A stretch of DNA of 64,000 nucleotides from a virus. Lineage: Duplodnaviria > Caudoviricetes. The stretch covers positions 1-64,000 of the IMG/VR virus record IMGVR_UViG_2862784999_000001; one strand, 5' to 3'. The translations under genes and the position numbers were made by a program. This document shows, in pieces, positions 10,878 to 59,173 of this stretch. The notes below the pieces were generated by a model. The model saw only the letters and a list, made by a program, of their open reading frames with translations. It was not told the origin of the DNA and made no database searches. The first letter of the stretch is position 1; every line of letters starts with the position of its first letter.

Positions 10878-10881
10878 TTCG

Positions 10882-12202: not shown

Positions 12203-12204
12203 GT

Positions 12205-13143: not shown

Positions 13144-13208
13144 GAGGCCCCCAATCAGGGCATAGAAAAAGCCCCAGTTCAGGGGCGCGGGCGTGGTGCT
13201 GTGGGGGG

Positions 13209-13829: not shown

Positions 13830-13837
13830 GCGGTCTC

Positions 13838-23823: not shown

Positions 23824-24411
23824 TCAGGAGCCCGAGTAGGCGGGCGTCGCGGGGATCTTGTCGACGTGGTAGACCGTGTTGCCGGCCTCGTCCGGGTAGG
23901 TGGTGATCGTCCACTCGTAGCCGCTGATCTCGTCCTGCTTGAACGAGACGTCGGAGCGGTCGTTGATCTCCCCCTGCGGGACGTAGAAGCCCTTGAAGGA
24001 CTCGCCGTCGACGACGAGGAACCAGAACGCGCGCCGGTCCGGGACGGGAGAGGCGGTCTCGGCGAACTTGGTGATGCCGTCCTCGTCCGGCTCCAGGTCC
24101 GCCTCGTCCAGCCGGTACTGCAGCGACTGGACTGCGACGCGGCCCGTCTCCCACACCGTCAGCCCGAACGTCCGCACGGACTTCGTGATCTGGGTGCGGA
24201 ACGGGGAGGTCAGGCCCCACGGCGTGAACTCCTGAGAGTCCTCGTCGAAGCCGTAGGTCAGACCGTCGTCGCTGATGGCGCCCAGCGGCGTCCACGGGGC
24301 CATAGGCTGATCGGTCGGCGAGGCGAGAGCCGGCGTGCCCACCGGGCTCACCCAGCCCCCACCCGTCGCCCCGACGAGCGAAAGATCCGAAGATCGAGTG
24401 ATGTTGACCAT
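23824..24411 (-). CDS. Major tail (tube) protein
   Basis: SPVGT...WTPLGAISDDGLT...YEWTITTYPD actinophage tail-tube pattern. Confidence 0.9.
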   Translation of the reverse strand: MVNITRSSDLSLVGATGGGWVSPVGTPALASPTDQPMAPWTPLGAISDDGLTYGFDEDSQEFTPWGLTSPFRTQITKSVRTFGLTVWETGRVAVQSLQYRLDEADLEPDEDGITKFAETASPVPDRRAFWFLVVDGESFKGFYVPQGEINDRSDVSFKQDEISGYEWTITTYPDEAGNTVYHVDKIPATPAYSGS

Positions 24412-24482
24412 GCTGTGTCTCCAGACAGAGAAGAGCCCGCGCACGGGCAGGAACGGGGGTCCGGCGCGGGCCCAGAGGACGG

Positions 24483-26021: not shown

Positions 26022-27056
26022 CTATCGGGCCAGGCCCTCCACGGCGGAACACCACGCGGCCAGATCGGCCGCCGGATCAAGCTCGACACTGCGGGCCTTC
26101 GCCCGCTTCGACGCCAACCGGTACTCGGCAGAGGTCAGCAACTTCCGCAGCACCGCCTCGTAGCCGGCAACATCCTCGCGATCGACGAAGATGCCCGCCT
26201 CGCCCAGTGATTCGCACAGGCCCGGCGTCGGATGTGCAACGACCGGGATGCCACTCGCGAGCGCTTCCACACCGGTGCGACCCCACGACTCGTAGGACGA
26301 CGGCATGAGCAGCACGCGGGTGCGGGCGTACACCTGCTCCCGCATGTCCTCGCCGCGAACATGCTCGACGATCTCCACGTTCGGCAGGTCCGGGAGGATC
26401 TGCTCCCCGTAAGCGCCCTTCACAGCAAGGAACTGCTGATCCGGCATGCGGCGCGCCAAGGCAGCGAGCACCTTGCCACCCTTCTCCGGATTGCAGTTGA
26501 CCAGCGTGATCGCCTTCCCAGGCTTGGTCGCATACTCGCCGGCGAAGACGGGCGGGCGCACGATCAGCGAAGACTCCGGCCGAACCGACTTCGGGTACTC
26601 GGCAAAGAAGAGCTCCGCCTCCCGCTCCATCCACACCGAGTTGTAGACCGCCAGGGCGGTCCCGCCAGCTGCGGCATCCCGGAACGTCGCGCGGTGCGTG
26701 TTGTGGCAGACCACCACCAGCGGCTTGCCGTAGCCGCGGGCCAAGGACGCCGCCGACGGCACCGTCTCCAGATGGGCGAGCAGCATGTGCGACCGCTTCA
26801 CGGCGGTCGGAAAGTCCAGCCGAGACTCCAGCGGAATCACGCGGATCCCGTGGTACTCGTACTCCTTGTGGGCCTTCCCATACCGCGACAGCCACACCTG
26901 CACGTCGTGGCCACGTTCCACCAGGGGCCGCAGCATCGACACGAGCATGTGCTCCGCGCCCGCATTGTGCTCCGGCGGCATCGCGTGCACCCGGGCAACG
27001 ATCGACAGCGGCTTGGCGGTCCCGCCCGGCGCGGACACCGGGACCGCCCTACTCAC
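26022..27056 (-). CDS. GT-B fold (family 4-like) glycosyltransferase within the head operon
   Basis: GAEH..L...LVERGHDVQV; KGG; LLMPSSYESWGRTGVEALASGIPVV (Ex7E); GTG start overlaps the capsid stop (GTGA). Confidence 0.92.
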   Translation of the reverse strand: MSRAVPVSAPGGTAKPLSIVARVHAMPPEHNAGAEHMLVSMLRPLVERGHDVQVWLSRYGKAHKEYEYHGIRVIPLESRLDFPTAVKRSHMLLAHLETVPSAASLARGYGKPLVVVCHNTHRATFRDAAAGGTALAVYNSVWMEREAELFFAEYPKSVRPESSLIVRPPVFAGEYATKPGKAITLVNCNPEKGGKVLAALARRMPDQQFLAVKGAYGEQILPDLPNVEIVEHVRGEDMREQVYARTRVLLMPSSYESWGRTGVEALASGIPVVAHPTPGLCESLGEAGIFVDREDVAGYEAVLRKLLTSAEYRLASKRAKARSVELDPAADLAAWCSAVEGLAR

Positions 27057-28009
27057 GAGCCGCTCGGGGTACCGGTGAACTTCACGAACGCGTCGGCGTC
27101 GCCCATCACGAAGCCGTAGTACGCCTCCGCGAGGATCAACACCAGGTTCTCCTGGAACGCGCTGTGGACGCCGCCGTCCTCGTCCACGTAGGTCGCCTGG
27201 TCGGAGATCCGCACGGTGATGTCCATGCCCACGCCGTAGGCGGCCTGAGTCCAGTCGCCGCCGATCGCGCGCAGACCCGTGTCCGCAGACGCGGACTGCC
27301 GGCGCTGCTTGCCCGACACGCTCCGCGAGTAGGCGAGCGGCTCGCCGATCAGGGTGCCCGCCGACGCCATGTTCGTGCCCGGCGTCTGCGTGTCGACCAG
27401 GATCGGACGGCCGGTCGTGTCCGTCGCCAGCAGCAGCTTCGGCTTCAGCCGGTGGTCGGCGACCGTGCCCGTGTAGTCGTAGTCCTCGTCGACGACGAGG
27501 TCCATGCCCTTGACGAGGTCGGCCCAGATGCCGCCCTGGCCCTGCGCCGTCGTGCCCAGTGCGACGGACTGCGAGGTCATCGCCAGGTACTCGGCGAAGG
27601 GACCGGTCGCACCCTTCATCGTCTTGCCGTGGATCGCCGCATGGTCGAAGGCCCGCGCGAACGCCGTCGGCAGGTCGTTCTGCAGCTGGGAGTACAGGCC
27701 CGCCGTGTTCGTGCGGGCGACCTCCATCGCGACCGGGATGAGCACGGCGAGCTTCTTCGCCGTCATGTGCTTGACGTCGATGCCGCCGGTCGACAGGGGC
27801 TTCTTCTGCCCCTGACCGACCCAGTCGGCGGTCGGCACGTCCATCGGGATCGGCACGGACGTGGTGGCGTCCAAGGCCAGCGGCGCCTGACGTGCGAGCG
27901 CCATGACCGCGGACTGCTCCACCGACTTCTCGAAGATCGGAGCGGTGATGGTCCGCGGGAGGAGCTCCTCGGGCAGACCGGAGGTAGTGATCGGGGCCGT
28001 AGCCACCAT
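27053..28009 (-). CDS. Major capsid protein (HK97 fold)
   Basis: SAVMALA...WVGQG.KKP...AKKLAVLIPV..E...AFDHAAIHG...GGDW...FQENLVLILAE. Confidence 0.93.
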   Translation of the reverse strand: MVATAPITTSGLPEELLPRTITAPIFEKSVEQSAVMALARQAPLALDATTSVPIPMDVPTADWVGQGQKKPLSTGGIDVKHMTAKKLAVLIPVAMEVARTNTAGLYSQLQNDLPTAFARAFDHAAIHGKTMKGATGPFAEYLAMTSQSVALGTTAQGQGGIWADLVKGMDLVVDEDYDYTGTVADHRLKPKLLLATDTTGRPILVDTQTPGTNMASAGTLIGEPLAYSRSVSGKQRRQSASADTGLRAIGGDWTQAAYGVGMDITVRISDQATYVDEDGGVHSAFQENLVLILAEAYYGFVMGDADAFVKFTGTPSGS

Positions 28010-29517: not shown

Positions 29518-30961
29518 CAGACACCTCCGCAGCCGTCGGCAAGCCGACCGCAGGCCGCTCGTTCACCGCGGCCAGCCGATCCAGCAGGCCGCCACCGGTA
29601 GCTGCCGCCGACGAGCGACGGCGGTCCACGGCAATCCGCTGCCGCTGACCCTCGGTGAACCCGGCCATCTCCAACGTGACGTCGGAGTCCGCCGGCAGGA
29701 CACCTGCCTGGACCAGCTTGACGGTCGCGTCGACTTGCGCGGCCACCGTCGGGGTCGCCGGGTTCCGCCACACCGTTTCGATGCGGCGCGTGCTGTCCGG
29801 CGGCTCACCGTCACGAACCCAAAGGGCCAGCCGCATCGCCTGCTGCCATCCCGCACCGAACCGCCGGATCCGGCGCTCCGCCTTCTTCACCTGCCGGTTA
29901 TCCGCGAACCGAATCGCGTCCGCTGACGCTGGATTGTCACTGCTGTAGCCCAGTACGTGCGGCGCCACCGACATCTGCGACGCCATAATCCTGGCATACA
30001 GGTCGATGAACTTCGTCATGCCCGACGGATCATGAGCAGCGAACTGACCCACGGTCGGAATGGCGCCGTCCTCGTCCCGCTCCAACGCCAGCACCCGGCC
30101 GATGTACGTCTCCCAGGCGGACTTGGCGTTGCCCTCCGCGTCCTGGAACGCCGACTCCGACGCACCCAGGATGTAGCGCTGCGGCGCCCCGTAGAACTCG
30201 GCGGCAACCTCCATGCCCATCAGCCGGCGGCACGCCGCATCCGTGATCGACATGACCTCCGGGGTGATCTCCGACTTGCCGACCCGGTCCGCGGTCCGCT
30301 GCCGATTCGCCAACCGAACCACCGGCACGACCCCCAGGCCGTGCATGTCCCGATCGACAACCTCCCAGCCACCCGACGGCGACGGCACAGCCATCACCGT
30401 CTGGTCCGGCAGATACAGGACCAGCATCCGCTCCTCGGGGCCCGACTCGACGAACGAGTCAGCGGCGCACTCGCGGAGCGCGGCCGTGCCCATCCGCAGG
30501 CGGGCATCCCACATCAGCGTCATGTCCAGCGGCGACTCAGCCGAGATCAAGGGCGGACAGTCGTCCCCACAGTCCCCCGCTCCGACCGCCAGATACTCGC
30601 GGCCGTACACCAGCGCATCCAGGTGCGCGAGGCTCGACTCGTCGAACAAGTCGTTCGCCTCGGCGATCTCCGTCAGCTCCGAAGCGTCAGCACCATCGGC
30701 CCAGCGGAACGCCTCCAAGTCGAGGCGCTCCTCCAGCGATTCGACACCGACCCGCGGCCAGCCGATCACCGTGTGCAAGCCACGGAGCTGCGGAGGGATA
30801 GAGATACCGAGGTCGCGGACCAGCTGCTCGCCGTTGAAGTAGGCGTCGCGCAACTTGAGTTCCCACCGGTCCCGCAGCATGTCCGCGCGAAGCACGTTGA
30901 TCAGCGCGAGCTCGTCATCCGACAACGTCAGCAGCGGCAGGTCAGGAATCGAGACGGTCAC
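29498..30961 (-). CDS. Portal protein (SPP1 gp6-like)
   Basis: YFNGEQ..LGI..P; WPRVGV..LEERL; GKSEIT; EFYGAPQRYILG; NPASADA. Confidence 0.92.
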   Translation of the reverse strand: MTVSIPDLPLLTLSDDELALINVLRADMLRDRWELKLRDAYFNGEQLVRDLGISIPPQLRGLHTVIGWPRVGVESLEERLDLEAFRWADGADASELTEIAEANDLFDESSLAHLDALVYGREYLAVGAGDCGDDCPPLISAESPLDMTLMWDARLRMGTAALRECAADSFVESGPEERMLVLYLPDQTVMAVPSPSGGWEVVDRDMHGLGVVPVVRLANRQRTADRVGKSEITPEVMSITDAACRRLMGMEVAAEFYGAPQRYILGASESAFQDAEGNAKSAWETYIGRVLALERDEDGAIPTVGQFAAHDPSGMTKFIDLYARIMASQMSVAPHVLGYSSDNPASADAIRFADNRQVKKAERRIRRFGAGWQQAMRLALWVRDGEPPDSTRRIETVWRNPATPTVAAQVDATVKLVQAGVLPADSDVTLEMAGFTEGQRQRIAVDRRRSSAAATGGGLLDRLAAVNERPAVGLPTAAEVSGGDGGL

Positions 30962-32589
30962 CGCAACACCACCACCCGTCCCGACTTGCCGGTCTTCTTC
31001 TTGCCGAGCCCCTTGGCCATGGCGTCTACTCGGGCTTGCCATGCGAGGACAGCAGCAATGGCGGCGTCGATCTTCTTCGGACTGTCGGGGTGCTCTTTCA
31101 TGATCTGGATACCGCTGCGCGACTCCCGCCGGCGAGAGTTCAGGATGTGCCTCGTCAGCACGCTCGACCCGTCGTGTGAAAGCTCCCCGTCGACGACGCT
31201 CGACCGGAACTTCTCCAGCGCGCGCACGATCTGATTGGAACGACCTCCGGTCATCCACCACTCGATCGGATGCTGAGTCGACGACTTGAGCTTCAGTCGG
31301 CGCCCGTGATCCGCCTCCCACTTCGCCACATGCGACTCCCACCTGGCCGGGTCCGCATACATGCCGACGACCTTGTACTCGCGGAACGCGTCCTCGACGG
31401 CTGCCAGCACCTCGACAGTGGGGACCTGCCAGTCCTGGCCAAAAGGCCCGTCAGGCTGCTCCCAGCAGCCGAGAAGGAAGAGATGACCGTCGGACACCCG
31501 GCAGCCGACCAAGGCGGTGGCGTCCGTGACGCCGCGGTTTCGTCGCCGCGAACCGTCGAAACCAAGGACAATCTCCTCGCCGCGACCGACGACCTTGTCG
31601 GCGGCGGCTACGCCAGCCCACTCGGGCTGCGAGATCCACGAGTCGGATGCGTGAGTGATCTGATTGAGGAAGTCGGCGCGGGCCGTCTGCGGGTCTGTAC
31701 TCGGATCCCAGATCGTGGCAACGATCGTGTCCAGGTCGACGTGCCCGCCGTTACGGTCGGCCGAGTCGCCGTAGGTGTACGCCAAGCCAGCCGTAAGCGA
31801 CTGGCGGTCCGTCATGTCGGTCTCAGGCGGGGCCTCGCGATGGTCGTAGTACAGCCCGTCATCCCGAGCCCGGCCCTCCCGGATCTTGGCCCAGAACGCC
31901 GCCGACTCCTCTGCTACCGATCCCTCTCCGGGAGTGAAGGCGTTTGGGGACTCGATGGTCGTACCGCCGACCTTCGCGGCGTTGATACGCATCGTCTCCG
32001 CTAGCCGGTTGCCGCGGTTCGAACGCACCCACTCCTCGGTCTGGTCCAGCACAGCGAAGACCGGCTTGTTGCCCTTCACTGTTCGAGCCGACGACGTGAT
32101 CGGCTCGATCCTCCCCCGTGGCAGATTGACGAAAGTGTCCAGCGGCTCCAGGCCCGGATACTCGTCGATGACCGGCCCCTGCAGCATCTCCAGCAGCGGC
32201 GCCCACGTGTTCTTCGTCTGGGTCTCTGACACCGCGGCGATCTGCACCAGTGGTGTGCGCACCTCAGACCACGGCTTGCCGACAGGCTGTCCATCAGCGT
32301 CCCAGCCATCTGGGACCACCGGGCCGAGAGCCTCAACGATCGCCAGTGCTGCGAGGAAGGGGCTCTTCCCCCACCCGCGCGGGCGACTGATGACCCCTCG
32401 CCGGAAGCGTCGCTTTCCGGTACGTGGGTCGATCTCGTAGTAGCGGAGGACAAAATCCTCCTGCTCCGGATACAGCAGGAACGGCTCGTAGTCGCCTCGG
32501 TCCGGAGCTGCCAGCATCTCCGAGATCCAGTCGATGACCTCGAATCCGAGGGTCGGGACGGCTCCGGGCTCCGACGGCTTCCACGGCAT
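30958..32589 (-). CDS. terL: Terminase large subunit
   Basis: Walker A RPRGWGKS, LDQTEE, RNase H-like LGFDGS..DATAL, KKIDAA. Confidence 0.95.
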   Translation of the reverse strand: MPWKPSEPGAVPTLGFEVIDWISEMLAAPDRGDYEPFLLYPEQEDFVLRYYEIDPRTGKRRFRRGVISRPRGWGKSPFLAALAIVEALGPVVPDGWDADGQPVGKPWSEVRTPLVQIAAVSETQTKNTWAPLLEMLQGPVIDEYPGLEPLDTFVNLPRGRIEPITSSARTVKGNKPVFAVLDQTEEWVRSNRGNRLAETMRINAAKVGGTTIESPNAFTPGEGSVAEESAAFWAKIREGRARDDGLYYDHREAPPETDMTDRQSLTAGLAYTYGDSADRNGGHVDLDTIVATIWDPSTDPQTARADFLNQITHASDSWISQPEWAGVAAADKVVGRGEEIVLGFDGSRRRNRGVTDATALVGCRVSDGHLFLLGCWEQPDGPFGQDWQVPTVEVLAAVEDAFREYKVVGMYADPARWESHVAKWEADHGRRLKLKSSTQHPIEWWMTGGRSNQIVRALEKFRSSVVDGELSHDGSSVLTRHILNSRRRESRSGIQIMKEHPDSPKKIDAAIAAVLAWQARVDAMAKGLGKKKTGKSGRVVVLR

Positions 32590-32590
32590 G

Positions 32591-33070
32591 TCAGCTCCCC
32601 GTCGACTCCTCCGGTGGCGGAAGCGCACGAAGAACACCGCGGCGCTCCCTAGCCGACCGGCCACCCTCGGGCCTCTTGCTATCGGCTTCGTCGGCCTGCG
32701 CGAACTGCATCCGCAGTCGCGCCCTGTCCTCCGGAGTCGCGCCGAACTTCGCCACCCGCAGTCGCAGCTCCCCGGCCGCCGACATCTCCCCCGACCACAG
32801 CCGGGCATGCACGACAGCCGTGTCCAGGAGGAAGTCCCAGTCGGTCGACGAGAAGTGCTCCGCCTGGGGCGACGCCTTCCACATCTCCCACCAGTCCAGC
32901 GTCCTCGCCGGCCACGCGTACTCGACCAGATCGCCGTCCTTCATCACCGACAGGGTCGGGAGTTCGGGCGGCTCGGCCTGCTCGAAGCGCAGGATCGTCT
33001 GAGCGTGCGGGTCCTTGCTATGCCCAGCTCGCCGCCTCGGGTCCTTCGGCGCGGGTCCGCGGCCAGCCAT
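32591..33070 (-). CDS. terS: Terminase small subunit
   Basis: MAGRGPAPK...WW..W..SPQA...DW...ELRLRVAKFGATPEDRARLR. Confidence 0.92.
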   Translation of the reverse strand: MAGRGPAPKDPRRRAGHSKDPHAQTILRFEQAEPPELPTLSVMKDGDLVEYAWPARTLDWWEMWKASPQAEHFSSTDWDFLLDTAVVHARLWSGEMSAAGELRLRVAKFGATPEDRARLRMQFAQADEADSKRPEGGRSARERRGVLRALPPPEESTGS

Positions 33071-33091
33071 GAGGCTCACCTCCGCCCGTCT

Positions 33092-33353
33092 GATCTCAAG
33101 ATCCAAATTCCCCAGACCCAGGGCCGACCTCAGCGCGTATACGGCCCCGATCCCTGAAGATCGCGGGGAGGGGGCATGCCCCCGGGTGGATCATGGTGGA
33201 GCCGGCCGATCAGGATCCCTAGTTCGATCATGGAATTTCAGGCCTTGCCGATCTTGCTCATCTCGATCATGTTCGTGTGTTCGAACTCGCTTCGTTCGAC
33301 TGATCGTTCGATCGAGCCTTCGCTCACTCGACCTTGATCCCGAACGTGCGATC
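33092..33353. other. Probable cos/packaging-initiation region, rich in GATC
   Basis: Non-coding gap upstream of terS with 14 GATC, a G/C-run element at 33163-33187, and a candidate overhang CGGGGCCGTAT (minus strand, 33149-33139). Confidence 0.5.
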
Positions 33354-33426: not shown

Positions 33427-34629
33427 TCACCCGTACCGGTAGGCGGTGACGTCGAGGGTCTGGCCTGCCGCGACGAGGAGCCCTGCGGTGACGGTGACCG
33501 TGAGGCCGGCTGCCGTCTGGGTCCCTGCCTTAACGGTTGCTGTGGCCTTGCCGATCAGCCCTGAAGTCTGCGCGATGTCCACGCTGTACGTGCTGCTCGG
33601 CATGGGCATGGACCACGTGATGACCTGGTCGTAGCTGGCACCGAGCGCGATGAGAGGCAGCGTCGGAACGGCTCGCCTGATCGCAACGGTCTTGGCCTTG
33701 AGCGCTGCGACGTCTGTCTCCAGTGCTGTTGCCCTGCTGGCAACGGCTGCTGCTGCAGTGTTCGCCTGGTCGGCTTTGGTGCCGGCGGTTGAGGCTGCCG
33801 CCTGTGCTGCGGTTGCTGCGGCTTGGGCTGTCCCCGCTGCCGTGGCCGCACTGTCGGCCGTGGTCTTGGCGCTGGCAGCCGTGGTGTTGGCTGCGGTGGC
33901 TTTCGTGGCGGCGTCTTGTGCCGTGGTCTGCGCCGAGGTGGCCGCGTTCTGTGCAGAGCTCGCCGCGTTCTTCGCGGTGGCGGCGTCCGAAGTGGCTTGT
34001 CCGGCGGCCGTCTTGGCCGCCGCTGCGTCCTTGCTTGCCAAGTTGGCGGTCGACTGGGCGGTATCCGCCGCAGTCTTGGCGTCCCGCGCGTCGGTCTGGG
34101 CCGTGCTCGCTGTGGCCTTCGCCTGACTGGCGTCGGCCTTGGCGGCCGTGCTCGCGGTCTGCGCTTGGTCGGACTGCGCGAGGGCCTGTGCGGATGCGTT
34201 GCTCGCCGCGGTCGCCGTGGTGCTGGCCTGCTGGGCAAGGACTGTCGAATCCTGGGCGACACCGATTGCGGTGCTGGCCTTGTCGTAGGCGCCCTGGGCC
34301 TGGACACCTGCGGAGTCCGCGTCGGCTTGTGCTTCAGCGATGAGCGGCCGGAGGGCCGCGGTCGCCTCCTCGGCTTGGTCGATGAGGCCTTGGAGGCGGG
34401 CGTGTTCGATGCCGGCGTTCTGCTGGATGGGGGCGAGTTGGGCTGCGATGTCGCCGAGGGTGGCCATGCGCGTGGCTATCTCTGCGGCGAGCGCGTCCTG
34501 ATCGGCCTTCTGTGCGGCGAGCCGCTCCGCGACCTCGGCGTTGTCGGCGAGTGCCGCGTTGGCGACGGTATCGACCATCGCTTTGGTGGCGGCGTCGGGC
34601 ACCTTGGGGCTGTAGCTGGTGCGCCTCAT
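33427..34629 (-). CDS. Ala-rich coiled-coil fibre protein with C-terminal beta domain (head spike/fibre candidate)
   Basis: Long heptad A..A Ala/Thr zipper followed by VITWSMPMPSSTYSV; ATGA-coupled to 34626-34925. Confidence 0.75.
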   Translation of the reverse strand: MRRTSYSPKVPDAATKAMVDTVANAALADNAEVAERLAAQKADQDALAAEIATRMATLGDIAAQLAPIQQNAGIEHARLQGLIDQAEEATAALRPLIAEAQADADSAGVQAQGAYDKASTAIGVAQDSTVLAQQASTTATAASNASAQALAQSDQAQTASTAAKADASQAKATASTAQTDARDAKTAADTAQSTANLASKDAAAAKTAAGQATSDAATAKNAASSAQNAATSAQTTAQDAATKATAANTTAASAKTTADSAATAAGTAQAAATAAQAAASTAGTKADQANTAAAAVASRATALETDVAALKAKTVAIRRAVPTLPLIALGASYDQVITWSMPMPSSTYSVDIAQTSGLIGKATATVKAGTQTAAGLTVTVTAGLLVAAGQTLDVTAYRYG

Positions 34630-34925
34630 GCCCGGGTCACCGACACCTTCGGCGTCCCGGCCGAGATCAGTTTGACGACGGTCGGGCCTGCGGTGGGCGG
34701 CTCGACTTGCGCGGAGCTGATGGCGGCGGGGAGGACGCGGGAGGCGCGGCCTTCGACGGCGGGGTCGCTGCCGTCGACGGTGAAGTAGATGGGCGCGGCG
34801 CCGTCGTGGGAGAGGACTTCGATCTCGTCGACGTCGTCGGGGAAGTGGATGGTGGTGACGGTGCCGGCGTCGAGGGTGACGCCGTGAACGCCCCACTCGT
34901 CGGCTTGGACGGTGTAGCTAGCCAC
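34626..34925 (-). CDS. Small beta-sandwich virion protein (spike-base/decoration candidate)
   Basis: IEVLSHDGAAPIYFTVDGSDP...VVKLIS; all-beta pattern, coupled to the fibre gene. Confidence 0.6.
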   Translation of the reverse strand: MASYTVQADEWGVHGVTLDAGTVTTIHFPDDVDEIEVLSHDGAAPIYFTVDGSDPAVEGRASRVLPAAISSAQVEPPTAGPTVVKLISAGTPKVSVTRA

Positions 34926-35169
34926 GGCGTCCTCCGCGCATTGCCTTGGCGTGGGCGCTGGTGGTCATGCCGGTGGCGGCCATGTGCCGGAGCTGGCAGT
35001 AGCCCTTGGCGCGGGCGCCCATGTACTTGGAGAGCAGACGGTTACAGCGGGACCAGTCTCCGGGTGTGCCCCAGCGGATCTTGGCTGCGCCTTCGCCGCG
35101 GGTCCAGTAGTTGCGGAGGGTTTGGGCGTTGCCGCGGTTCTTGCGGCTTCCTCGACCCTTGCTGGCCAC
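34918..35169 (-). CDS. Small basic actinophage-type protein
   Basis: LRNYWTRGEGAAKIRWGTPGDWSRC...GYCQLRH. Confidence 0.75.
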   Translation of the reverse strand: MASKGRGSRKNRGNAQTLRNYWTRGEGAAKIRWGTPGDWSRCNRLLSKYMGARAKGYCQLRHMAATGMTTSAHAKAMRGGRRG

Positions 35170-37708: not shown

Positions 37709-37903
37709 TTACTCGGCGGCTTCACGGCCGTCGAGGCTGTGGTGGGTGTAGACCCAGCCGTCGGATCCGTCACCCATCGGGCTGGGGCTGGGCGTGGGTC
37801 CGCACGGGCAGAGGTCGGTGAGGTCGCGGACGAGCAGGTCGTCGAGCGGGGCGACGTGGACTTCGTTGCCGCCGGTCTGCTTGGCCAGCCACTGCCCGCT
37901 CAT
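37709..37903 (-). CDS. Small His/Cys-rich hypothetical protein
   Basis: HVAPLDDL...CPCGP...HHSLDGRE; ATGA-coupled to the epimerase gene. Confidence 0.65.
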   Translation of the reverse strand: MSGQWLAKQTGGNEVHVAPLDDLLVRDLTDLCPCGPTPSPSPMGDGSDGWVYTHHSLDGREAAE

Positions 37904-38766
37904 GCGGCGAGCGCCCGCGCGATGCCTTCTTCGAGGCTGACGCGAGGCTGGTACACGTCGAGCATCCGCTTCGGGTCGCACACGCGGTGGTGGACGCCTT
38001 GGGGTGCGGTGGCGAGGTGCTTCAACTCGGGCTGGTAGCCGGCTGCGATAGTGACGAGGCCGGCGAGTTCGTCGAAGCTGGTCGCCCTGCCCCAGCCGAT
38101 GTTCATCGGCCCGGTGGCGTCCTGGTCGACGGCTGCGAGGGTGGCGCCGACGAGATCCGAGATGTGCACCCAGTCGCGCGTGCTACTGCCGTCGCCCCAG
38201 ATCTCGAACGGATCCTGCCGCTCGCGGGCCCGGCGGATGAACGCGGGGAACGGGTAGCAGTCGTCTTGATCTTCGCCGTAGCCGGAGAACGGCCGCAACG
38301 AGTGGACGCGGCAGCCTTCGGCTTCGGCGTACTGGGCGAGCTGCTCCCCCGCGAGCTTGGCGAGCCCGTAGGTCGCGTCGGGTCGTCCGGGCTGCTCGTA
38401 GTTGATGTCCGTCTCGACGAGCCGGTGGATCTCGCCGGGCTGCTGAAGCGCGACCGGGTAGGCGGCTGAGCTGGAGAAGTAGACGGCGCGCGGGGTGCCG
38501 GTGCGGATCAGCCACCGGAAGTACCAGGCGTCCAGCGCTAGATTGGTGGCGACCCCGAGCGGCGATCCGTCGATGCTGGCCCGGCCGCCGACGACTGCCG
38601 CGCAGTGAATGGCGAGGTCGTAGGGCCGCTGGTCGAAGCGGTACAGATCGAGTGCGTCGCGGCCGTCGATGAGGTCGACGCCGGTGACATCGTCGCCTCG
38701 CTCGTCGAGTGCGGCGTGCAGGTGGCGGCCGACGAAGCCCCGGTGGCCGGTGAGGAGAACGCGCAT
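37900..38766 (-). CDS. NAD-dependent nucleotide-sugar epimerase/dehydratase (extended SDR)
   Basis: LLTGHRGFVG (GxxGxxG), FSSSAAY, YGLAK (YxxxK), IWGDGSSTRDWVHISD. Confidence 0.93.
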   Translation of the reverse strand: MRVLLTGHRGFVGRHLHAALDERGDDVTGVDLIDGRDALDLYRFDQRPYDLAIHCAAVVGGRASIDGSPLGVATNLALDAWYFRWLIRTGTPRAVYFSSSAAYPVALQQPGEIHRLVETDINYEQPGRPDATYGLAKLAGEQLAQYAEAEGCRVHSLRPFSGYGEDQDDCYPFPAFIRRARERQDPFEIWGDGSSTRDWVHISDLVGATLAAVDQDATGPMNIGWGRATSFDELAGLVTIAAGYQPELKHLATAPQGVHHRVCDPKRMLDVYQPRVSLEEGIARALAA

Positions 38767-39365
38767 CAGCCGGCTGCCTTGACGGCCCGGTAGACGCCCC
38801 AAGGCAGGTGGCTGTCGATGGGCTCCAGTCCGATCCGCGCGCACGCCTCGTCCTGCTGTTCCTTGGACCAGGTGGTGACGCCGATCCAGCTGTCGGCTTC
38901 GGCGGGCTGGTCGCTGAGTGGCCAGTCGAGGACGAGGATCCCGCCGAGTTTCGTCGCGGCCCGCAGCTTGGCGACGATGTTGAGGCAGTCGCTGTAGCTG
39001 TGGTGGATGAGGACGGCGAGGCTGTAGACGGCGTCCATTCGGCGGCGGCCGAGGTGCTTGGCGATGCCGTCGGCGTCTGCGAGGACGGCGTCAGCGTCGG
39101 GGAGGCGTTCGGCGAGCCGTTCGAGCATGCGTGGCGAGGAGTCGACGGCGGTCACCTCGTAGCCGAGGACGGTCATGGGGATGGCGACGCGGCCGTCACC
39201 GCAGCCGAAGTCGAGCACCTTCGCCCCGTCGGGGATGACGGTGGCGAGCATCTCCGCCTGGTCCTGCCCGGACTCCCAGTACGCGTCTTCGGACACGCGG
39301 CGGAGCGGGTGAATCGCTTCGGGGTCGGCCTGATCCCAGGCCTGGATGACAGCTTCGGCGGTCAC
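38766..39365 (-). CDS. Class I SAM-dependent methyltransferase
   Basis: VLDFGCGDGR, AVDSSPRML, DAVYSLAVLIH, GGILVLD. Confidence 0.92.
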   Translation of the reverse strand: MTAEAVIQAWDQADPEAIHPLRRVSEDAYWESGQDQAEMLATVIPDGAKVLDFGCGDGRVAIPMTVLGYEVTAVDSSPRMLERLAERLPDADAVLADADGIAKHLGRRRMDAVYSLAVLIHHSYSDCLNIVAKLRAATKLGGILVLDWPLSDQPAEADSWIGVTTWSKEQQDEACARIGLEPIDSHLPWGVYRAVKAAG

Positions 39366-40072
39366 GCTGCCTCCTCGACGAGCTTCCGCAGCTTGACGAG
39401 GTCGGCTTCGAGCCCGCCGTTGTCGCGGTAGTCGATGTAGGCGGCGCCGTCAGCCTGGGAGCGTTCCGGGCTGTTGCAGTCCTCGTAGACGGCGTCGAGG
39501 CTGGCCTTCCCGGCGGCCGGGTGCAGGTGCTCGATGACCATGTCGTCGAGGTAGGTGATCCGTCCCATGCCCTTCCCCCAGTCGAGCCAGACGAGGTCGA
39601 GGCAGAGGTGGACGAGCTGTGGCGGCGCCATGTAGTCCAGCGTCGTGACGATGTCGGAGGTCATTGCGACGGCGGTGGCCATGGCTTGGCCTTGGAGCAG
39701 GTCGTTGCCGTAGACGATGCCGGGGCCGCCGGACAGGCACTCCCGGATCCGGGCGTCCCACGCCATCGTTGCGGCCCGGGGCCGGTGGTCGTCGCCCATG
39801 AAGGCGAGGTACCGGTAGTTGGGGGCGTTCTTCACCGCGGCCTGGTTGAGGGTGCCGCACAGCCGCTTCCGCGCCCAGAACACAAACCGCACCCGCTGGT
39901 CGTCGGCGAGATCCTTCGCCAGCGCCTTGTACGCGGCAAGCTCCGGATCGTCCTTGTCGACACAGAACAGCAGGTCGGCGGTCGCCCCGGTGTCGTCCCA
40001 CGCCTGCACGATCTCGGGCACGGCCTGGGGTCGGCCGCGGGTGGGGATGATGACGAGCAGGTCGTCGGCCAT
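39362..40072 (-). CDS. GT-A fold (family 2-like) glycosyltransferase
   Basis: LLVIIPTRGRP, FMGDDH (DxD-like), IEHLHP. Confidence 0.88.
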   Translation of the reverse strand: MADDLLVIIPTRGRPQAVPEIVQAWDDTGATADLLFCVDKDDPELAAYKALAKDLADDQRVRFVFWARKRLCGTLNQAAVKNAPNYRYLAFMGDDHRPRAATMAWDARIRECLSGGPGIVYGNDLLQGQAMATAVAMTSDIVTTLDYMAPPQLVHLCLDLVWLDWGKGMGRITYLDDMVIEHLHPAAGKASLDAVYEDCNSPERSQADGAAYIDYRDNGGLEADLVKLRKLVEEAA

Positions 40073-40084
40073 GGCGCGGGCTCC

Positions 40085-40372
40085 TCAGTTGATCGTGAAG
40101 CGCGGGGATTTGATGACGGGCCGCTCTGGTGGGGCCTGGATGCGCACCCAGGTCCGGTAGGTGCCGGGTCCGGGGTCGATGGCGCCGTCGGGGCCGATGA
40201 GGATCATCGCGACGTGATGCCCGTTGTCGGTGCCCCAGGCGGCGGCATGCCAGTCGCCTGGCTCGGGCCGTTCACCGTCTTCGAGGACGGCGACCTCGAC
40301 CGTGTATCCGGCGGGGTCGCCGCTGCCCGCGGTGACGGGGGTCATCAGATATTCGCTGCTCTCGCGTTCCAC
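40085..40372 (-). CDS. Small Ig-like (BppU-like) virion adaptor protein
   Basis: SEYL..PVT...LIGP..G.Y..WVRI..PE.PV; follows the long repeat protein. Confidence 0.6.
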   Translation of the reverse strand: MERESSEYLMTPVTAGSGDPAGYTVEVAVLEDGERPEPGDWHAAAWGTDNGHHVAMILIGPDGAIDPGPGTYRTWVRIQAPPERPVIKSPRFTIN

Positions 40373-40380
40373 CAGACCCC

Positions 40381-43140
40381 CTACGTGTGCGGCTGCTGCG
40401 CTCTCCAGGAGCTGTACGGCGCGCCGGCTTCATGCCGGGGGCGGAGGGTTCCTGCGGCCCAGCGGGTGCGGGGGGCTCCGGCGGTGAGCGTGTCGAGTTG
40501 TTCGACGGGCCCGGGTCCGGTGACGCCGCCTGCCGCGATGAGGGCTGCGAGGACGGCGAGTTGGCCGGTGATTTTCCGCGTGACGGCGGGGGTTGCGCTC
40601 GTCGTCGCTGTGACGGCGAGGCTGGCTGTGCTGGTGACGGCGACAGTCCCGCTGGCGGCCAGGCTCGCGGTGGCGGTGAGCGCGGCGGATCCGTCGCCTG
40701 CAGCGGTAACGGTTCCGTCGGCGGTTGCCGTTGCGGTCGCCGCGAGTTGCGCGCCACCCGCGGTGGCAAGGTCACCGTGGGCGGTCGTGCCCGCGCTGAC
40801 GTCCAGAGTGTCCGCGGGGGCGGAGGTGCCGAGCGCACCTTCGGCTGCTGTCCCCGCGGTAGCTGTGAGGCTCCCGCCGCTGGCCGTTGCGCGGGTTCCC
40901 GCTGCCGCCGCGGTAGCAGTGGCGTCGAGGAGTCCGTTGCCGGCTGCCGCGGTTTGGCCGTCGGCGATGAGGCCAGCGGTTGCCGTGAGGCTGGCCGACG
41001 ATTCGCCTGCCGCGCTGACCGCGCCTGCCGCAGTGGCGGTCGCGGTGGCCGCGAGTACGGCGGCGGCCTGGCTGGACGCTGCCCCGCCGGCTGCCGCTGT
41101 CGCGACGGCGGTCAGGTCTGCCGAGCCTTGTGCGGCTCGAATTCCGTCGCTGGTGGCGGTCGCGGTCGCCGCGAGGTCTGCGGTGCCGGTTCGGCCGGGA
41201 ACGCCCGAGGCGGCCAGGCCTGCCACGGCTGCGAGTTCTCCGCCCGCTGTTGCCGCGACTGTGCCGCTGGCGGATCCGGTTGCGGCGGCGGTGAGGCTGC
41301 CAGCCCCGGTCGCTGCACGGTCGCCGCTGCTCGTGGCGGTGGCCGTGACGGCCAGGTCGCCGGCGAGGTCGCGCCCGACGCTGCCGCTGGCCGCGATGGT
41401 TGCTGTACCCGCGAGGCTGCTCGCTCCGGTGCCTGCGACGGCTCCTGCCGAGGTCGCTGTGCCGGTGGCCGCGAGTGCTGCCTGGCCGCTGGCCGCCCTG
41501 GCGCCTGCGCTGCTCGTCGTCGCAGTGACCGCGAGGCTTCCTACTCCGACCGTGCTGGTGGTACCAGCCGCTGTCGGTGCGGCCGTGGCGGCGAGTGTTG
41601 CTGCCCCTGCCGCTGCGGTCATTCCGGCTGCTGTCGGGGATGCGGTGGCGGTGAGCGTGCCAGCGCTGGCCGTTGCAGACGACCCGGCGGCCGTGAGGGC
41701 TGCGGTCGCGGCGAGCGTGGCGGCACCGGCCGCGTCGCGGGTACCGGTCGCACTGCTGACGGCGGTTGCCGCGAGGGTGGCGCTGCCTGCCGCGGCAACG
41801 GCCCCTGAGGCGGATGCGGTTGCTACTGCGGCGAGGCTTCCACCAGCCGCTGTCGCCCGCTGTCCTGTTGCGGTGGGGCTGGCGGTCGCGGCGAGCGTCC
41901 CGCTGCCCGAGCCGCCGAGAGCGCCGGTTGCTGTCGCGGTGGCGGCGCCGGTGAGGCTTCCGTCGCCGGTGACCGCGTTGACGGGCACGTACTCGACGAG
42001 CGCCCACGCGGTGGAGATGCGGCGGGTAGTGGTCTGAGAGGTGTTGGAGCGGTAGCCGATCTGCGCGTTGGCGAGGGTGGCTGCCGTCCAGGCGGTGCTG
42101 GTCTGCGGATTGCTGTAGGCGGTGAGCTGGTACAGGCGGGGGACGGCCGCTTTGTGCGTCGACCAGCCGTTGACGTTGACGGAAGTCGACGCGGATTCGG
42201 AGACGGTGCCGCCGGACTGGCCTTTGATGCGGGTGACGATGCTCGCTGCGGTGGTGGCGTTGGAGCCGATCCGCACGCCGACGGAGACGAGGCTGATCGC
42301 GTCGGAGGCGCCGATCCCTGCGCTAGTCGGGGAGGTGAGGGTGAAGTCGTCGATCGTGGTGGTGCCCGTGGCGATCGTCGAGTTGTAGCTGGTCGCGTCG
42401 TTGGGCGTGACTTCGTTGACGCGGGTCCAGTTGTTCGCGGCGCCCGCGGTGCCGCCGACGACGGTGGCGAAGCCGTTGTTGTCGCCCTGCCCTGCGGGCT
42501 GGAGGTGGACCACGGTGCCGGGGCCGGGGAGGCCGGTCTGTGCCGTGCCCGTCGTGTCGTTGACGGCGATGTCGTCGATGCAGATGTCCAGCGAGTTCGC
42601 TGACTGGAGGGCGCCGGCACGGACGCGACTGAACCCGTTGATGTTGGTGCACATCTGGTCGCTGACCAGGGTGCCGTCGATGTACAGCTTGAACGCGGAG
42701 GTCCCGGCCGTGATCGTGCCCGCGACGTCGTTGAAGTCCGCTTCGATCCGGTACCACTGGCCGATGCTGAGCGGGCTGGTGGCGGAGCCGAGGTCACTGC
42801 TGGCCTGATCGTCGCGGAGGACCAGGCTGCCGTCGGTCTTCAGCCGGATCATGCCGGGGAAGTAGCCGGACTGGCCGATCCCGTACACATTGCAGTCGGC
42901 GGCCGGGAGCGCGTTGATGTACAGGTAGAAGCGGTGGAATGTCCGCATGACGACACCGCTGGTCAGCTGGTGCTCGATGTAGGACGTGCCCGCGGTCGGG
43001 GTGACGCGCAGGGAGGCCGCGCCGCCGCGGTGGATGCTGGTGGAGATGGCCGGTGAGCCGCCGACGGTGTTGACGTCCTGCGTCTCGACGAGGGCTGTCA
43101 CGGACTGGAGCTCGAAGCCGCACGTCCACATCCGCGCCAC
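40381..43140 (-). CDS. 919-aa virion fibre/scaffold protein: N-terminal lectin-like beta domains plus about 24 x 20-aa Ala/Thr/Gly repeats
   Basis: LamG-like pattern (IGQWYRIE...LYIDG...IDDIAVND); repeat xxxxLxxTAxxxAxGxxxxx; short GxPxxxW-type repeats at the C-terminus. Confidence 0.75.
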   Translation of the reverse strand: MARMWTCGFELQSVTALVETQDVNTVGGSPAISTSIHRGGAASLRVTPTAGTSYIEHQLTSGVVMRTFHRFYLYINALPAADCNVYGIGQSGYFPGMIRLKTDGSLVLRDDQASSDLGSATSPLSIGQWYRIEADFNDVAGTITAGTSAFKLYIDGTLVSDQMCTNINGFSRVRAGALQSANSLDICIDDIAVNDTTGTAQTGLPGPGTVVHLQPAGQGDNNGFATVVGGTAGAANNWTRVNEVTPNDATSYNSTIATGTTTIDDFTLTSPTSAGIGASDAISLVSVGVRIGSNATTAASIVTRIKGQSGGTVSESASTSVNVNGWSTHKAAVPRLYQLTAYSNPQTSTAWTAATLANAQIGYRSNTSQTTTRRISTAWALVEYVPVNAVTGDGSLTGAATATATGALGGSGSGTLAATASPTATGQRATAAGGSLAAVATASASGAVAAAGSATLAATAVSSATGTRDAAGAATLAATAALTAAGSSATASAGTLTATASPTAAGMTAAAGAATLAATAAPTAAGTTSTVGVGSLAVTATTSSAGARAASGQAALAATGTATSAGAVAGTGASSLAGTATIAASGSVGRDLAGDLAVTATATSSGDRAATGAGSLTAAATGSASGTVAATAGGELAAVAGLAASGVPGRTGTADLAATATATSDGIRAAQGSADLTAVATAAAGGAASSQAAAVLAATATATAAGAVSAAGESSASLTATAGLIADGQTAAAGNGLLDATATAAAAGTRATASGGSLTATAGTAAEGALGTSAPADTLDVSAGTTAHGDLATAGGAQLAATATATADGTVTAAGDGSAALTATASLAASGTVAVTSTASLAVTATTSATPAVTRKITGQLAVLAALIAAGGVTGPGPVEQLDTLTAGAPRTRWAAGTLRPRHEAGAPYSSWRAQQPHT
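40513..41967 (-). repeat. About 24 degenerate 60-bp (20-aa) coding tandem repeats
   Basis: Examples: GSGTLAATASPTATGQRATA / AGGSLAAVATASASGAVAAA / GSATLAATAVSSATGTRDAA. Confidence 0.85.
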
Positions 43141-43173
43141 GGCGACCTCCCGACGGTCAGGCCGCGGTCAGGA

Positions 43174-43569
43174 TCAGGAGGCCTGCGGTGAGAGGGAGAG
43201 GCTGAGCGACGTCGCCGTGAACGTGTCGCCCGACGACCACGCCTTCGACGAGCTGAGGGCGACGGAGAACAGGAACGTGCCGCCGGAGGCTGCGGACCAT
43301 ACGGAGATGTCGGTGATCGTCTCGCTGGTGCCGCCGTTCGTCCACGACGGGTTAGTGCCGGTGAGGGCGAGCGCGGACCCGGACGAGGACGCGGCGAACG
43401 TGAAGACGGGCCGGGTCGTCGAGCCGGCGGACACCGCGGTGGTTCCGGCCGCCCCGGGGTTCGCGGTGTGGATCTGCGCGTAGGTGGTGATCGGCCCATA
43501 GGCCGCGCCGGCCGTCCGCAGGGTGTTGAGCCAGCTGGATACCAGGGAGGTGGAGAGGCCCTCAGCCAT
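43174..43569 (-). CDS. Small Ser/Thr-rich beta-sandwich virion fibre subunit
   Basis: QIHTANPGAAG...ETITDISVWSAASGGTFLFS...GDTF resembles a widespread phage structural family. Confidence 0.7.
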   Translation of the reverse strand: MAEGLSTSLVSSWLNTLRTAGAAYGPITTYAQIHTANPGAAGTTAVSAGSTTRPVFTFAASSSGSALALTGTNPSWTNGGTSETITDISVWSAASGGTFLFSVALSSSKAWSSGDTFTATSLSLSLSPQAS

Positions 43570-43678
43570 CGGTGTTCGTCTCCTCTGTGTCGGGAGACGC
43601 GTCGGCCTCCGGCTGCGGGGGGTGGGTGACTTCGCCCTCGGCGTGGAGGGTGATCGTGATCGTGTGCGTGTCGGCCAC
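43562..43678 (-). CDS. 38-aa peptide (not in the ORF track)
   Basis: GGAGG RBS; MADTHTITITLHAEGEVTHPPQPEADASPDTEETNTDG*; overlaps the next start. Confidence 0.5.
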   Translation of the reverse strand: MADTHTITITLHAEGEVTHPPQPEADASPDTEETNTDG

Positions 43679-44182: not shown

Positions 44183-44428
44183 TCAGGCGGCGTGAGCGTC
44201 TGCCTCGCGCGCCGGGATTTTCGGGGGCGGCGTGGGGGTGATGACCCGCTGGGTTTCCTTGTCCCGTTCAGCGGGATCGATCTCCATCAGGTCGTACCGG
44301 GCGTTGCGGCCCTTGCCGTAGACCTTGATGCGCCCTTCGGATGCCCAGCGCCAGATCGTGCCGACGGGACGGCCGGTCCAGTAGGCGGCGTCTGCTGCGG
44401 TAGCGAGTGCGATGGAGGGCACGGTCAC
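44183..44428 (-). CDS. MerR/excisionase-like HTH DNA-binding protein
   Basis: ADAAYWTGRPVGTIWRWASEGRI...ARYDL. Confidence 0.75.
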   Translation of the reverse strand: MTVPSIALATAADAAYWTGRPVGTIWRWASEGRIKVYGKGRNARYDLMEIDPAERDKETQRVITPTPPPKIPAREADAHAA

Positions 44429-44545
44429 CTCCGGGAACGACGAAGGCCACCCGGTGCCGGGTGGCCTCAGCGCGAAGTTCTGCTATCTGAGCAGATGATC
44501 GCTTCGGTGATCGGGTTTTGTCAACCCACCGATGTCAACAGCCCC

Positions 44546-50407: not shown

Positions 50408-50531
50408 CCGTCTTTGGCCCGGCAAGGCCCCGTCTACGGCCCGGCTAGGCGATCAAGGGGATCCGCTGGTAGCCGGGCCATAGACGGCCCGAAGACGGGG
50501 GTCAGGCGGCCCGAAGACGGGCTTTAGCCGG
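50408..50531. repeat. Head-to-head 11-bp-phased repeat arrays, candidate clt / TraB-recognition locus
   Basis: CCGTCT/CCGGCA/CCGTCT/CCGGCT at 50408, 50419, 50430, 50441; AG(A/C/G)CGG at 50471, 50482, 50493, 50504, 50515, 50526. Confidence 0.75.
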
Positions 50532-58763: not shown

Positions 58764-59173
58764 CGACCGAGACGACGACCGAGAAGCCTCCCGTATCGGT
58801 GGCGATCATCACCGACGGCGGCAAAGTCCTGATGGCGCGCCGCAGGGCCGCGGAGGGCGAGATCTCGTGGGTGTTCCCGGGGGGCGCGATCGAGGCCGGC
58901 GAGTCGCCGGAGCAGGCTGCGGTCCGCGAGGTCGACGAGGAGACCGGGCTGAAGGTCGAGTCGGTCAAGGTGCTCGGCGACCGGGTGCATCCGAAGAGCG
59001 GGGTGCCGATGCACTACGTCGCGGTGCGCCTGGTCGGCGGGGAGGCCCGGGTCGCGGACGATGAGGAGCTCGACGCCGTCGCCTGGATCACGCACGCCGA
59101 GATCGCCGACTACGTGCCCTACGGCCTGTTCGGGCCGGTGCAGGAGTACCTCGACGAGGTCCTGCCGCACTGA
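58760..59173 (+). CDS. Nudix hydrolase
   Basis: Canonical box GAIEAGESPEQAAVREVDEETGL; GTGA-coupled. Confidence 0.92.
   Translation: MTTETTTEKPPVSVAIITDGGKVLMARRRAAEGEISWVFPGGAIEAGESPEQAAVREVDEETGLKVESVKVLGDRVHPKSGVPMHYVAVRLVGGEARVADDEELDAVAWITHAEIADYVPYGLFGPVQEYLDEVLPH

Follow-up and report, generated by a model that had tools for sequence, protein, structure and literature searches.

A putative chain-like fibre module and a glycan cassette occupy a variable slot in the late region of a temperate siphophage

The window analysed here is the first 64 kb (64,000 nucleotides) of the 86.6-kb IMG/VR virus record IMGVR_UViG_2862784999_000001, and its minus strand holds a complete siphophage late region. 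Seven minus-strand open reading frames (ORFs) follow one another from 43678 to 37900: a 38-amino-acid (38-aa) ORF, a 131-aa protein of the Gp80 family, a 919-aa protein with a lectin-like first domain and 20-aa repeats, a 95-aa immunoglobulin-like (Ig-like) protein, and three enzymes, namely a glycosyltransferase, a methyltransferase and a nucleoside-diphosphate-sugar (NDP-sugar) epimerase/reductase (Table 1). A preliminary description of the locus had read this run as a single system in which the enzymes build a glycan on the fibre proteins encoded alongside. All seven ORFs are present where it had placed them, and the run does lie upstream of the terminase and outside the tail cluster, 4.8 kb upstream of the small terminase gene, with the tail genes at 14.6-24.4 kb. 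The first five ORFs are closely spaced, with gaps of 8-33 bases and one 8-base overlap. Comparison with relatives nevertheless divides the run into two separate accessory modules, a set of fibre genes and an enzyme cassette, which adjoin each other within one variable slot at the putative start of the late operon and which are swapped independently of each other.

A relationship to a solved phage fibre is seen in the 131-aa protein, which belongs to Pfam family PF23140, Gp80 (E = 4.7e-20; bit score 72.7, cut-off 27), and to phrog_240 (E = 8e-20). Its residues 6-123 match PDB 8jou_a, the bead chain of the solved GP4 fibre (phmmer, E = 3e-6), and Ser and Thr together make up 36% of the protein. 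The gene that follows encodes the 919-aa protein, residues 1-431 of which match phrog_14065 (E = 1e-204); the conserved N-terminal region has 160 homologues, nearly all from Streptomyces. The predicted model of residues 1-209 has a predicted local distance difference test score (pLDDT) mostly of 70-95 over residues 31-200 and below 50 for residues 1-30, and this lectin-like domain finds a Foldseek match at E = 5e-7. It superposes on the ConA-like fold of 3zyp_A (VIA Z 18.0, root-mean-square deviation (rmsd) 2.6, 180 residues aligned) and on 2zzj_A (Z 17.8, rmsd 2.9, 192 aligned), and other VIA matches include sialidase lectin modules, the CBM2 of the phage J-1 distal tail protein (Dit; Z 13.3) and the Douge baseplate 8zdo_a (Z 13.2). 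The presence of Dit carbohydrate modules among these matches, and the position of the 919-aa homologue after the tape measure gene in three of the loci fetched for comparison (L014, L035 and L036), had raised the idea that the N-terminal domain is itself a Dit; we set this aside, as the phage has its own tail-tip genes at 14.6-17.9 kb. Residues 210-386 also lie in the family-wide conserved region, and the fold-search matches are dominated by the first domain.

The remainder of the 919-aa protein is largely repetitive. Over residues 387-866 the sequence is 39% identical to itself at a lag of 20 residues, with a mean BLOSUM score of 1.51 as compared with at most 0.64 at lags of 5-69 that are not multiples of 20, and the repeats are composed of 35% Ala, 18% Thr, 15% Gly and 10% Ser (Ser and Thr together 28%). 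No tandem repeat was found at the DNA level. A hidden Markov model of the 20-aa repeat, built from 15 units, retrieved solely the window's own protein, and lag-20 autocorrelation was used instead; by this measure most 919-aa homologues have the 20-aa period. A short non-repeat tail closes the protein, and similar tails, judged by eye, end repeat proteins with other N-terminal domains in L069, L073, L077, L114, L115 and L117, where they could be the anchoring end. The 95-aa protein is modelled as a six-strand beta sandwich (pLDDT 86.3), and its structural neighbours in Foldseek and VIA are generic Ig-like domains only (best Z 6.4, rmsd 3.0, 82 aligned). Its homologues follow the repeat-protein gene in L004, L008, L011, L012, L019, L020, L022, L027 and L041, and whenever the fibre genes stand before the terminase genes the 95-aa gene comes after the repeat-protein gene. 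We also considered that the 95-aa family might be related to the N-terminal extension of Hiyaa-type adaptors, which was rejected on an hhalign probability of 0.1%. At the other end of the module, tblastn shows the putative 38-aa ORF conserved in no more than two close relatives, L004 (87%) and L012 (76%), and Pfam and PHROG scans gave no family match for it.

We then compared the neighbourhoods of the 919-aa family across 44 dereplicated loci, with 283 neighbouring ORFs scanned against PHROG. They remained from 59 fetched loci once ten duplicates, three loci that end within the gene, and L001 and L018, which are almost the same as L002 and L006, had been removed. The gene directly upstream of the 919-aa homologue is of Gp80 type in L004, L007, L012, L039 and L040, and by tblastn also in L055. 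In the window, L004, L012, L007 and L040 the Gp80-type gene directly precedes a 20-aa-repeat protein, despite differing N-terminal domains. The pairing was also looked for in 13 further Gp80 loci of the lineage: in nine of these the ORF after the Gp80 gene contains at least 96 period-20 residues (more than 300 in six of the nine), and in the other four it contains none. Fibre-family genes lie in the structural modules of relatives, and the position of the fibre module varies. In Hiyaa-like phages it is flanked by the capsid and adaptor genes; in L014, L035, L036, L039 and L042 it comes after the tape measure gene; and in the window and ten other loci it precedes the terminase genes and is followed by the 95-aa gene. 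In L019, L022 and L043 (about 10001-14330) the N-terminal domain is an ORF of its own (408-409 aa), followed by a 154-aa ORF, a 727-762-aa ORF and a 95-aa homologue; the layout may represent a split repeat-protein gene or a different arrangement, and the lag-20 scan did not flag the 727-762-aa ORFs.

These features lead us to a reading in which module 1 (43678-40085) would build a chain-like, 'beads-on-a-rope' virion fibre. Dimers of the 131-aa protein, the putative bead, would dock by beta-sheet augmentation on the approximately 24 20-residue repeats of the 919-aa protein, the putative rope; the two N-terminal sandwich domains of the rope, the first of them ConA-like, would form a sugar-binding tip, and its C-terminal tail would serve with the 95-aa Ig-like protein as the anchor. 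Both bead docking and fibre polarity are inferred. The preliminary description had suggested a filament of repeat scaffold, subunit and Ig-like adaptor, and this part of it fits the solved chain-like fibre kind, given the Gp80 family match and the available text of PMC13730344. On balance, we favour the view that the fibre is a further member of that kind.

An alternative for the fibre genes is that the 919-aa protein is a self-sufficient, probably trimeric beta fibre with self-folding repeats, and that the 131-aa protein serves as a separate small fibre, as a decoration or in assembly. In sequence the rope matches none of the solved chains, and no 8JOU chain is among the fold matches listed for the 95-aa protein, which may still resemble one. 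In 13 loci, including L002 (9033-9482), the gene preceding the 919-aa homologue belongs not to Gp80 but to phrog_26662, a 148-aa family that shows no profile similarity to Gp80-like proteins (hhalign probability 0.1%) and whose profile found no match among PDB sequences. The ropes preceded by phrog_26662 keep the 20-aa repeats, so that the repeats may not need Gp80. These points count against a bead-and-rope fibre, and NCBI names two homologues 'beta strand repeat-containing protein', as a self-sufficient fibre would have it. Set against the latter is the pairing of the Gp80 gene with a 20-aa-repeat protein across three unrelated types of N-terminal domain and in phage Faith1, and the solved examples, in the available text of PMC13730344, show exactly this bead/rope division of labour. 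We give the self-sufficient fibre a real but minority chance and continue to prefer the chain-like one.

The second module (40072-37900) comprises the three enzymes, which the preliminary description had recognised correctly: each has a family match (phrog_14945, Methyltransf_25 and PF01370, respectively), and the translational coupling it had noted can be read in the sequence as GTGA between glycosyltransferase and methyltransferase and as TGATG between methyltransferase and epimerase. The TGATG overlap places the epimerase start at the ATG at 38766 and not at the GTG at 38844. Also as described, no enzyme has a transmembrane-like segment, with no 19-residue window above a Kyte-Doolittle value of 1.3, and all three are soluble by hydropathy. 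The glycosyltransferase, putatively of GT-A type, falls under the Pfam GT2 (PF00535) gathering score (E = 0.098; 13 bits against 23.3) and has no match in NCBIfam or among PDB sequences. Homologues annotated as glycosyltransferase are carried by 69 phage records (tblastn), and in the ESM Atlas the family is almost confined to viruses, its nearest clusters being 91-100% viral and one of them having GT2 on 12% of its members. The epimerase scores 126.6 bits (cut-off 20.9) as a member of the wider PF01370 epimerase/dehydratase family and aligns to positions 4-297 of the 308 of NF047922, GDP-L-fucose synthase (Fcl). Module 2 would most likely alter a nucleotide sugar, transfer it and methylate it, the substrates of all three enzymes being predicted. 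The trio, or a core of glycosyltransferase, an intervening gene and epimerase, is an old mobile unit, present both in Streptomyces prophages and in phage contigs of 39-53% G+C.

How closely the two modules belong together was assessed from both sides. Starting from the fibre, all three enzymes are found beside the 919-aa family in 2 of 58 fetched loci (tblastn), and any glycosyltransferase at all among the nearest three upstream and five downstream ORFs in 6 of the 44 scanned loci, with L039 having one further off. Starting from the glycosyltransferase, the cassette occupies the same place before the terminase genes in 23 distinct Streptomyces prophage loci. A Gp80 gene lies just upstream in 16 of these; in the other seven the record or genome holds no Gp80 gene, and two of the seven are 100% complete proviruses and three are whole genomes. 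Finally, we took 20 near-complete relatives (capsid-related records with a contig of at least 45 kb and at least 90% complete; 19 from the capsid start plus G011), of which five carry both modules, four the cassette only, five Gp80 only and six neither (odds ratio 1.5, Fisher P = 1.0, n = 20, the relatives not being phylogenetically independent). Fibre and cassette are thus separate, independently swapped modules, which is the best-shown point of this analysis, and their adjacency follows from the use of the same variable slot before the terminase genes.

The proposal of the preliminary description, that the neighbouring Ser/Thr-rich fibre proteins are the specific acceptors of a glycan made, transferred and methyl-capped by the cassette and that the whole is one system with conserved linkage, does not survive this comparison well. 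Its appeal lies in the adjacency, co-orientation and narrow gaps of the genes, in the Ser and Thr content of bead and repeats, in the 16 prophage loci with a Gp80 gene just upstream of the cassette, and in the glycosyltransferases of other families that adjoin 919-aa homologues in L007 (phrog_854) and L013 (phrog_28745 and phrog_1721), with a weak candidate in L017 and a more distant one in L014. Yet the near-complete relatives show no association, seven cassette-bearing prophages lack any Gp80 gene, glycosyltransferases are scarce near 919-aa homologues, and the shared slot accounts for the adjacency, which makes the proposal quite unlikely. The fibre proteins are likewise not the favoured glycan acceptors, the linkage being absent and the glycosyltransferase family being capsid-adjacent elsewhere. 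The cassette is, in our assessment, a member of the actinophage glycan-cassette kind that is not tied to the fibre. In L013, a 479-aa ORF (8096-9535) directly upstream of the 919-aa homologue combines galactosyltransferase-like (phrog_1721) and head-tail-connector-like (phrog_2322/12035) parts and could be either a connector-tethered glycosyltransferase or a fused ORF call; the second glycosyltransferase of that locus (phrog_28745) is encoded two genes upstream.

A possible target for the cassette comes into view at the capsid gene, which is directly followed by a second glycosyltransferase gene, of glycosyltransferase family 4 (GT4), whose product matches Pfam Glyco_trans_1_4 (E = 3e-14) and phrog_26352 (E = 3e-168). 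This placement is fixed: among the best 80 capsid-related loci (L121-L200), a GT4 homologue begins 30-183 bases past the capsid match in all 80. The capsid and tail-tube proteins are unrelated, and both have a short, Ser-ended C-terminal tail. Ser or Thr is the last residue in 76 of the 80 capsid homologues, and Ser in all 66 complete tail-tube homologues, 55 of which end in Gly-Ser. We regard the Ser-ended tails and the GT4 gene, taken together, as a candidate mark of C-terminal glycosylation. Relatives of the cassette glycosyltransferase occur at the same kind of position: in L100 and L105 the order is capsid gene, a glycosyltransferase of phrog_34859, a homologue of the cassette glycosyltransferase, and head-tail adaptor. 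In L101 a phrog_2170 GT4, of the kind that follows the capsid gene here, directly adjoins a glycosyltransferase-methyltransferase-epimerase triplet. Another Streptomyces phage, TurkishDelight (L065), has an annotated glycosyltransferase of 678 aa (gene 20) inside its head-tail module, with the capsid gene to one side and the major tail gene to the other; 38% identity to the window GT4 is found in the C-terminal part, and the same record holds a second tblastn match.

The available text of PMC12363180 reports that the virions of phages Che8, Corndog and Myrna are glycosylated, and virion glycosylation by phage enzymes, on which the preliminary description had drawn, is a known actinophage trait. 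Glycosylation of the Che8/Corndog type is the best reading of module 2 because relatives of its glycosyltransferase are capsid-adjacent, the GT4 gene is fixed behind the capsid gene, and the Ser tails are shared. The cassette would work together with this GT4, which is probably part of the same pathway, and the favoured acceptors would be virion proteins, chiefly the capsid and tail-tube subunits at their Ser-ended C-terminal tails, as in Che8 and Corndog. That the cassette decorates virion proteins, with capsid and tube favoured over fibre, we hold at close to an even chance, and the explanation as a whole, a fibre module plus a glycan cassette acting on virion proteins, could equally well prove right or wrong. 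It is unlikely, though conceivable, that matters go further, such that the lineage O-glycosylates the Ser tails of capsid and tube through GT4 and the cassette, present in about half of the relatives (9 of 20), is a swappable 'serotype' module that adds a methylated 6-deoxy sugar, maybe also on the beaded fibre; natural phage variants would then differ in nothing but sugar coat and fibre. Freeman et al. in 2023 reportedly located the Che8 glycans on the C-termini of capsid and tube.

Several observations pull against cassette-borne virion glycosylation. GT4 is present in all 80 relatives, which leaves the Ser tails without a negative control, and the tails are the same in relatives with and without the cassette. 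Neither glycosyltransferase matched any Mycobacterium phage (tblastn, E ≤ 1e-3, 50,697 phage records; 69 and 3 matching records), and the assignment of the epimerase to Fcl through NF047922, the best NCBIfam model (E = 5e-26), reaches 91.8 bits against a cut-off of 500. Homologues of the cassette glycosyltransferase also lie among DNA-metabolism genes in Blueeyedbeauty and Jay2Jay, which are large Streptomyces phages. In these lytic phages (L062, Blueeyedbeauty genes 76-78; L063, Jay2Jay genes 37-39) two glycosyltransferases and a small nucleotidyltransferase form a conserved trio among the replication genes.

Another explanation is that the cassette acts on the host as a moron, altering for example a cell-wall glycopolymer or some other molecule for superinfection exclusion or lysogenic conversion, the virions not being glycosylated by it. 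PHROGs places phrog_14945 in the category 'moron, auxiliary metabolic gene and host takeover', and the cassette is patchy among close relatives, as accessory cargo would be, and sits in a variable slot. The enzymes have no transmembrane-like segment, however, and the cassette is co-oriented with the late genes, with no terminator-like site between. Together with a glycosyltransferase family that is almost exclusively viral in the ESM Atlas and that stands between capsid and adaptor genes in L100 and L105, this makes a role on the host quite improbable, and we retain virion glycosylation as the preferred reading. A role in DNA modification, in which a hypermodified base of the phage DNA would be glycosylated or methylated by the enzymes so as to evade restriction, is very improbable: in Blueeyedbeauty and Jay2Jay the homologue does have a second glycosyltransferase and a nucleotidyltransferase beside it, amid genes for replication and nucleotide metabolism, and phrog_2675, which is also matched, is labelled 'DNA methyltransferase', but that label stems from the Pas34 fusion of phage phiAsp2, called a putative O-methyltransferase by its depositors, the scanned ORFs of the 64-kb window (the last 22.6 kb of the record lying outside it) yielded no hydroxymethylase, no thymidylate-synthase-like gene and no other gene for base modification, and an NDP-sugar epimerase/reductase with a small-molecule-type methyltransferase better fits glycan building.

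Candidate control signals would place both modules at the start of the late genes. An 81-aa helix-turn-helix protein precedes the fibre genes (phrog_2474, E = 1.2e-4; Pfam HTH_17, E = 8e-4, under the cut-off), and its family does so in L004, L027 and L041 as well. Further upstream lies the sole promoter-like match within 32.5-46 kb, a weak consensus signal given that 0.6 sites are expected in shuffles, and a search that is similarly weak found no minus-strand terminator-like site from this match to the terminase genes. The match may be the start of the late transcription unit, and both modules would then be expressed late.

Besides the genes in Table 1, the minus strand of the late region encodes connector proteins, a chaperone, a 1709-aa tape measure protein, tail-tip proteins, an endolysin and a holin. 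The phage is temperate, as it has a tyrosine integrase, and its close relatives are Streptomyces proviruses by classification. With the 5.8-kb region as query, megablast gave no match in the 50,697 phage records; three soil-metagenome DNA runs contain 6-7% of the sampled words, and no RNA run is listed as containing them. A 489-aa ORF (33427-34896) situated between cassette and terminase genes has no PHROG match and a Pfam match at noise level; it overlaps smaller ORFs, including one (34918-35169) of the conserved phage family phrog_6439, and is probably a shadow frame of G+C-rich DNA. Upstream of the late region (50502-53908), a 692-aa FtsK/SpoIIIE-like protein (phrog_12531, E = 1.5e-74) and a 443-aa ORF without clear family overlap by 4 bases, and near 58-59 kb (58113-59173) the opposite strand carries two neighbouring NUDIX genes.

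Table 1. Positions of the features discussed, in window coordinates
Feature	Position	Strand	Remarks
38-aa ORF	43562..43678	minus	overlaps next gene by 8 bases; putative, coding status uncertain
131-aa Gp80-family fibre subunit, putative 'bead'	43174..43569	minus	PF23140
919-aa protein	40381-43140	minus	
919-aa protein, residues 1-209	42514..43140	minus	ConA-like lectin/glucanase jelly roll, predicted model
919-aa protein, residues 210-386	41983..42513	minus	second domain, mostly beta; pLDDT 43-89
919-aa protein, residues 387-866	40543..41982	minus	~24 units of 20 aa; putative 'rope'
919-aa protein, residues 867-919 and stop	40381..40542	minus	non-repeat C-terminal tail
95-aa Ig-like beta sandwich	40085..40372	minus	putative anchor
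236-aa glycosyltransferase	39362..40072	minus	phrog_14945, E 8.5e-46
199-aa class I S-adenosylmethionine-dependent methyltransferase	38766..39365	minus	Methyltransf_25, E 2e-13
288-aa extended short-chain dehydrogenase/reductase (SDR), NDP-sugar epimerase/reductase	37900..38766	minus	PF01370, E 1.4e-36; phrog_540
Major capsid protein, ends ...TPSGS	27053..28009	minus	phrog_10, E 1.6e-43; candidate glycan acceptor
Second glycosyltransferase, GT4 (GT-B type)	26022..27023, start approximate	minus	directly after capsid gene
Major tail (tube) protein, ends ...YSGS	23824..24444	minus	phrog_117, E 7e-37; candidate glycan acceptor
Sigma-70-like promoter match	44495..44524	minus	TTGACA-18-GATCAT, 10/12; consensus match alone
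81-aa helix-turn-helix (MerR-like) protein	44183..44428	minus	precedes fibre genes
Small terminase	32591-33106	minus	
Large terminase	within ORF 30958-32808	minus	true start later
Portal	29498-31342	minus	
Protease	28744-29517	minus	
Scaffold	28021-28680	minus	
Tyrosine integrase	9062-10366		beyond lysis genes

To our knowledge, virion glycosylation has so far been shown only for mycobacteriophages. If the explanation favoured here is true, the trait extends to temperate Streptomyces phages and has a simple sequence mark, Ser-ended capsid and tube tails near a fixed glycosyltransferase gene; siphophage appendages would gain beaded fibres with a lectin tip. The lineage comprises natural sets with and without the fibre and with and without the cassette, which are ready controls for studies of adsorption, host range and survival in soil. 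It also offers a caution, in that tight adjacency in a phage variable slot is not evidence of shared function.

Among known systems, the fibre module most resembles the chain-like fibres of podophages, in which, according to the available text of PMC13730344, dimers of 140-171-aa monomers (GP4 gp80, VP1 gp11, A1002 gp40/41) augment a beta sheet with a rope protein or a fibre-dock domain, with 5 dimers per fibre in GP4 and 11 in A1002, and in which the A1002 dock ends in an Ig-like domain. The bead protein of these phages (GP4 Fiber I, PDB 8JOU) falls in the same Pfam family, PF23140, as the 131-aa protein, its gene adjoins that of a protein with a long stretch of possible docking sites, and an Ig-like element is associated. 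Our case differs in that the phage is a temperate actinobacterial siphophage, the putative rope has N-terminal lectin-like domains, its repeats number about 24 as against 5 and 11 dimers, and neither rope nor 95-aa protein has a detectable sequence match or a specific structural match to the solved chains.

Closer in sequence are the gene 13 products ('minor tail protein' or hypothetical) of Streptomyces phages Hiyaa, Keanu, Galactica and Spocter, which are 56-66% identical to the N-terminal 386 residues of the 919-aa protein, have a 20-aa period in part of their C-terminal half and have a small gene directly upstream. That gene, however, is of phrog_26662 and not Gp80, gene 13 stands between the capsid and head-to-tail adaptor genes, and a search there gave no homologue of either the 95-aa protein or the cassette. 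In mycobacteriophage Faith1 (cluster L), a Gp80-type gp23 (47% identity) is directly followed by gp24, a 762-aa protein with the record note 'structural protein', whose C-terminal half has 20-aa repeats that align to those of the window (blastp, E = 3e-4). Faith1 differs in the N-terminal part of gp24, which has a Gly-rich region, in the absence of adjacent glycan genes and in the position of gp23 and gp24 within the tail module before the lysin genes.

For the cassette, the nearest parallels are Che8, Corndog and Myrna, which likewise have phage glycosyltransferases, in Corndog together with a methyltransferase, among virion or late genes; in Corndog (genes 35-38), the available text of PMC4351075 describes an O-methyltransferase and three glycosyltransferases situated between the genes for portal and protease. 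The glycosyltransferases of these phages are unrelated to ours at the level of tblastn, the host is another one, and the window adds an Fcl-like sugar-nucleotide enzyme. In Actinoplanes phage phiAsp2 no epimerase is annotated, and the genes concerned follow the tail genes, whereas here they precede the terminase genes. Nonetheless, phiAsp2 Pas34 contains a homologue of the cassette glycosyltransferase (37% identity) that is joined in one protein to a putative O-methyltransferase, with two further glycosyltransferases flanking it (Pas33-Pas35), and this fusion supports the view that the glycosyltransferase and methyltransferase of the cassette act on one product.

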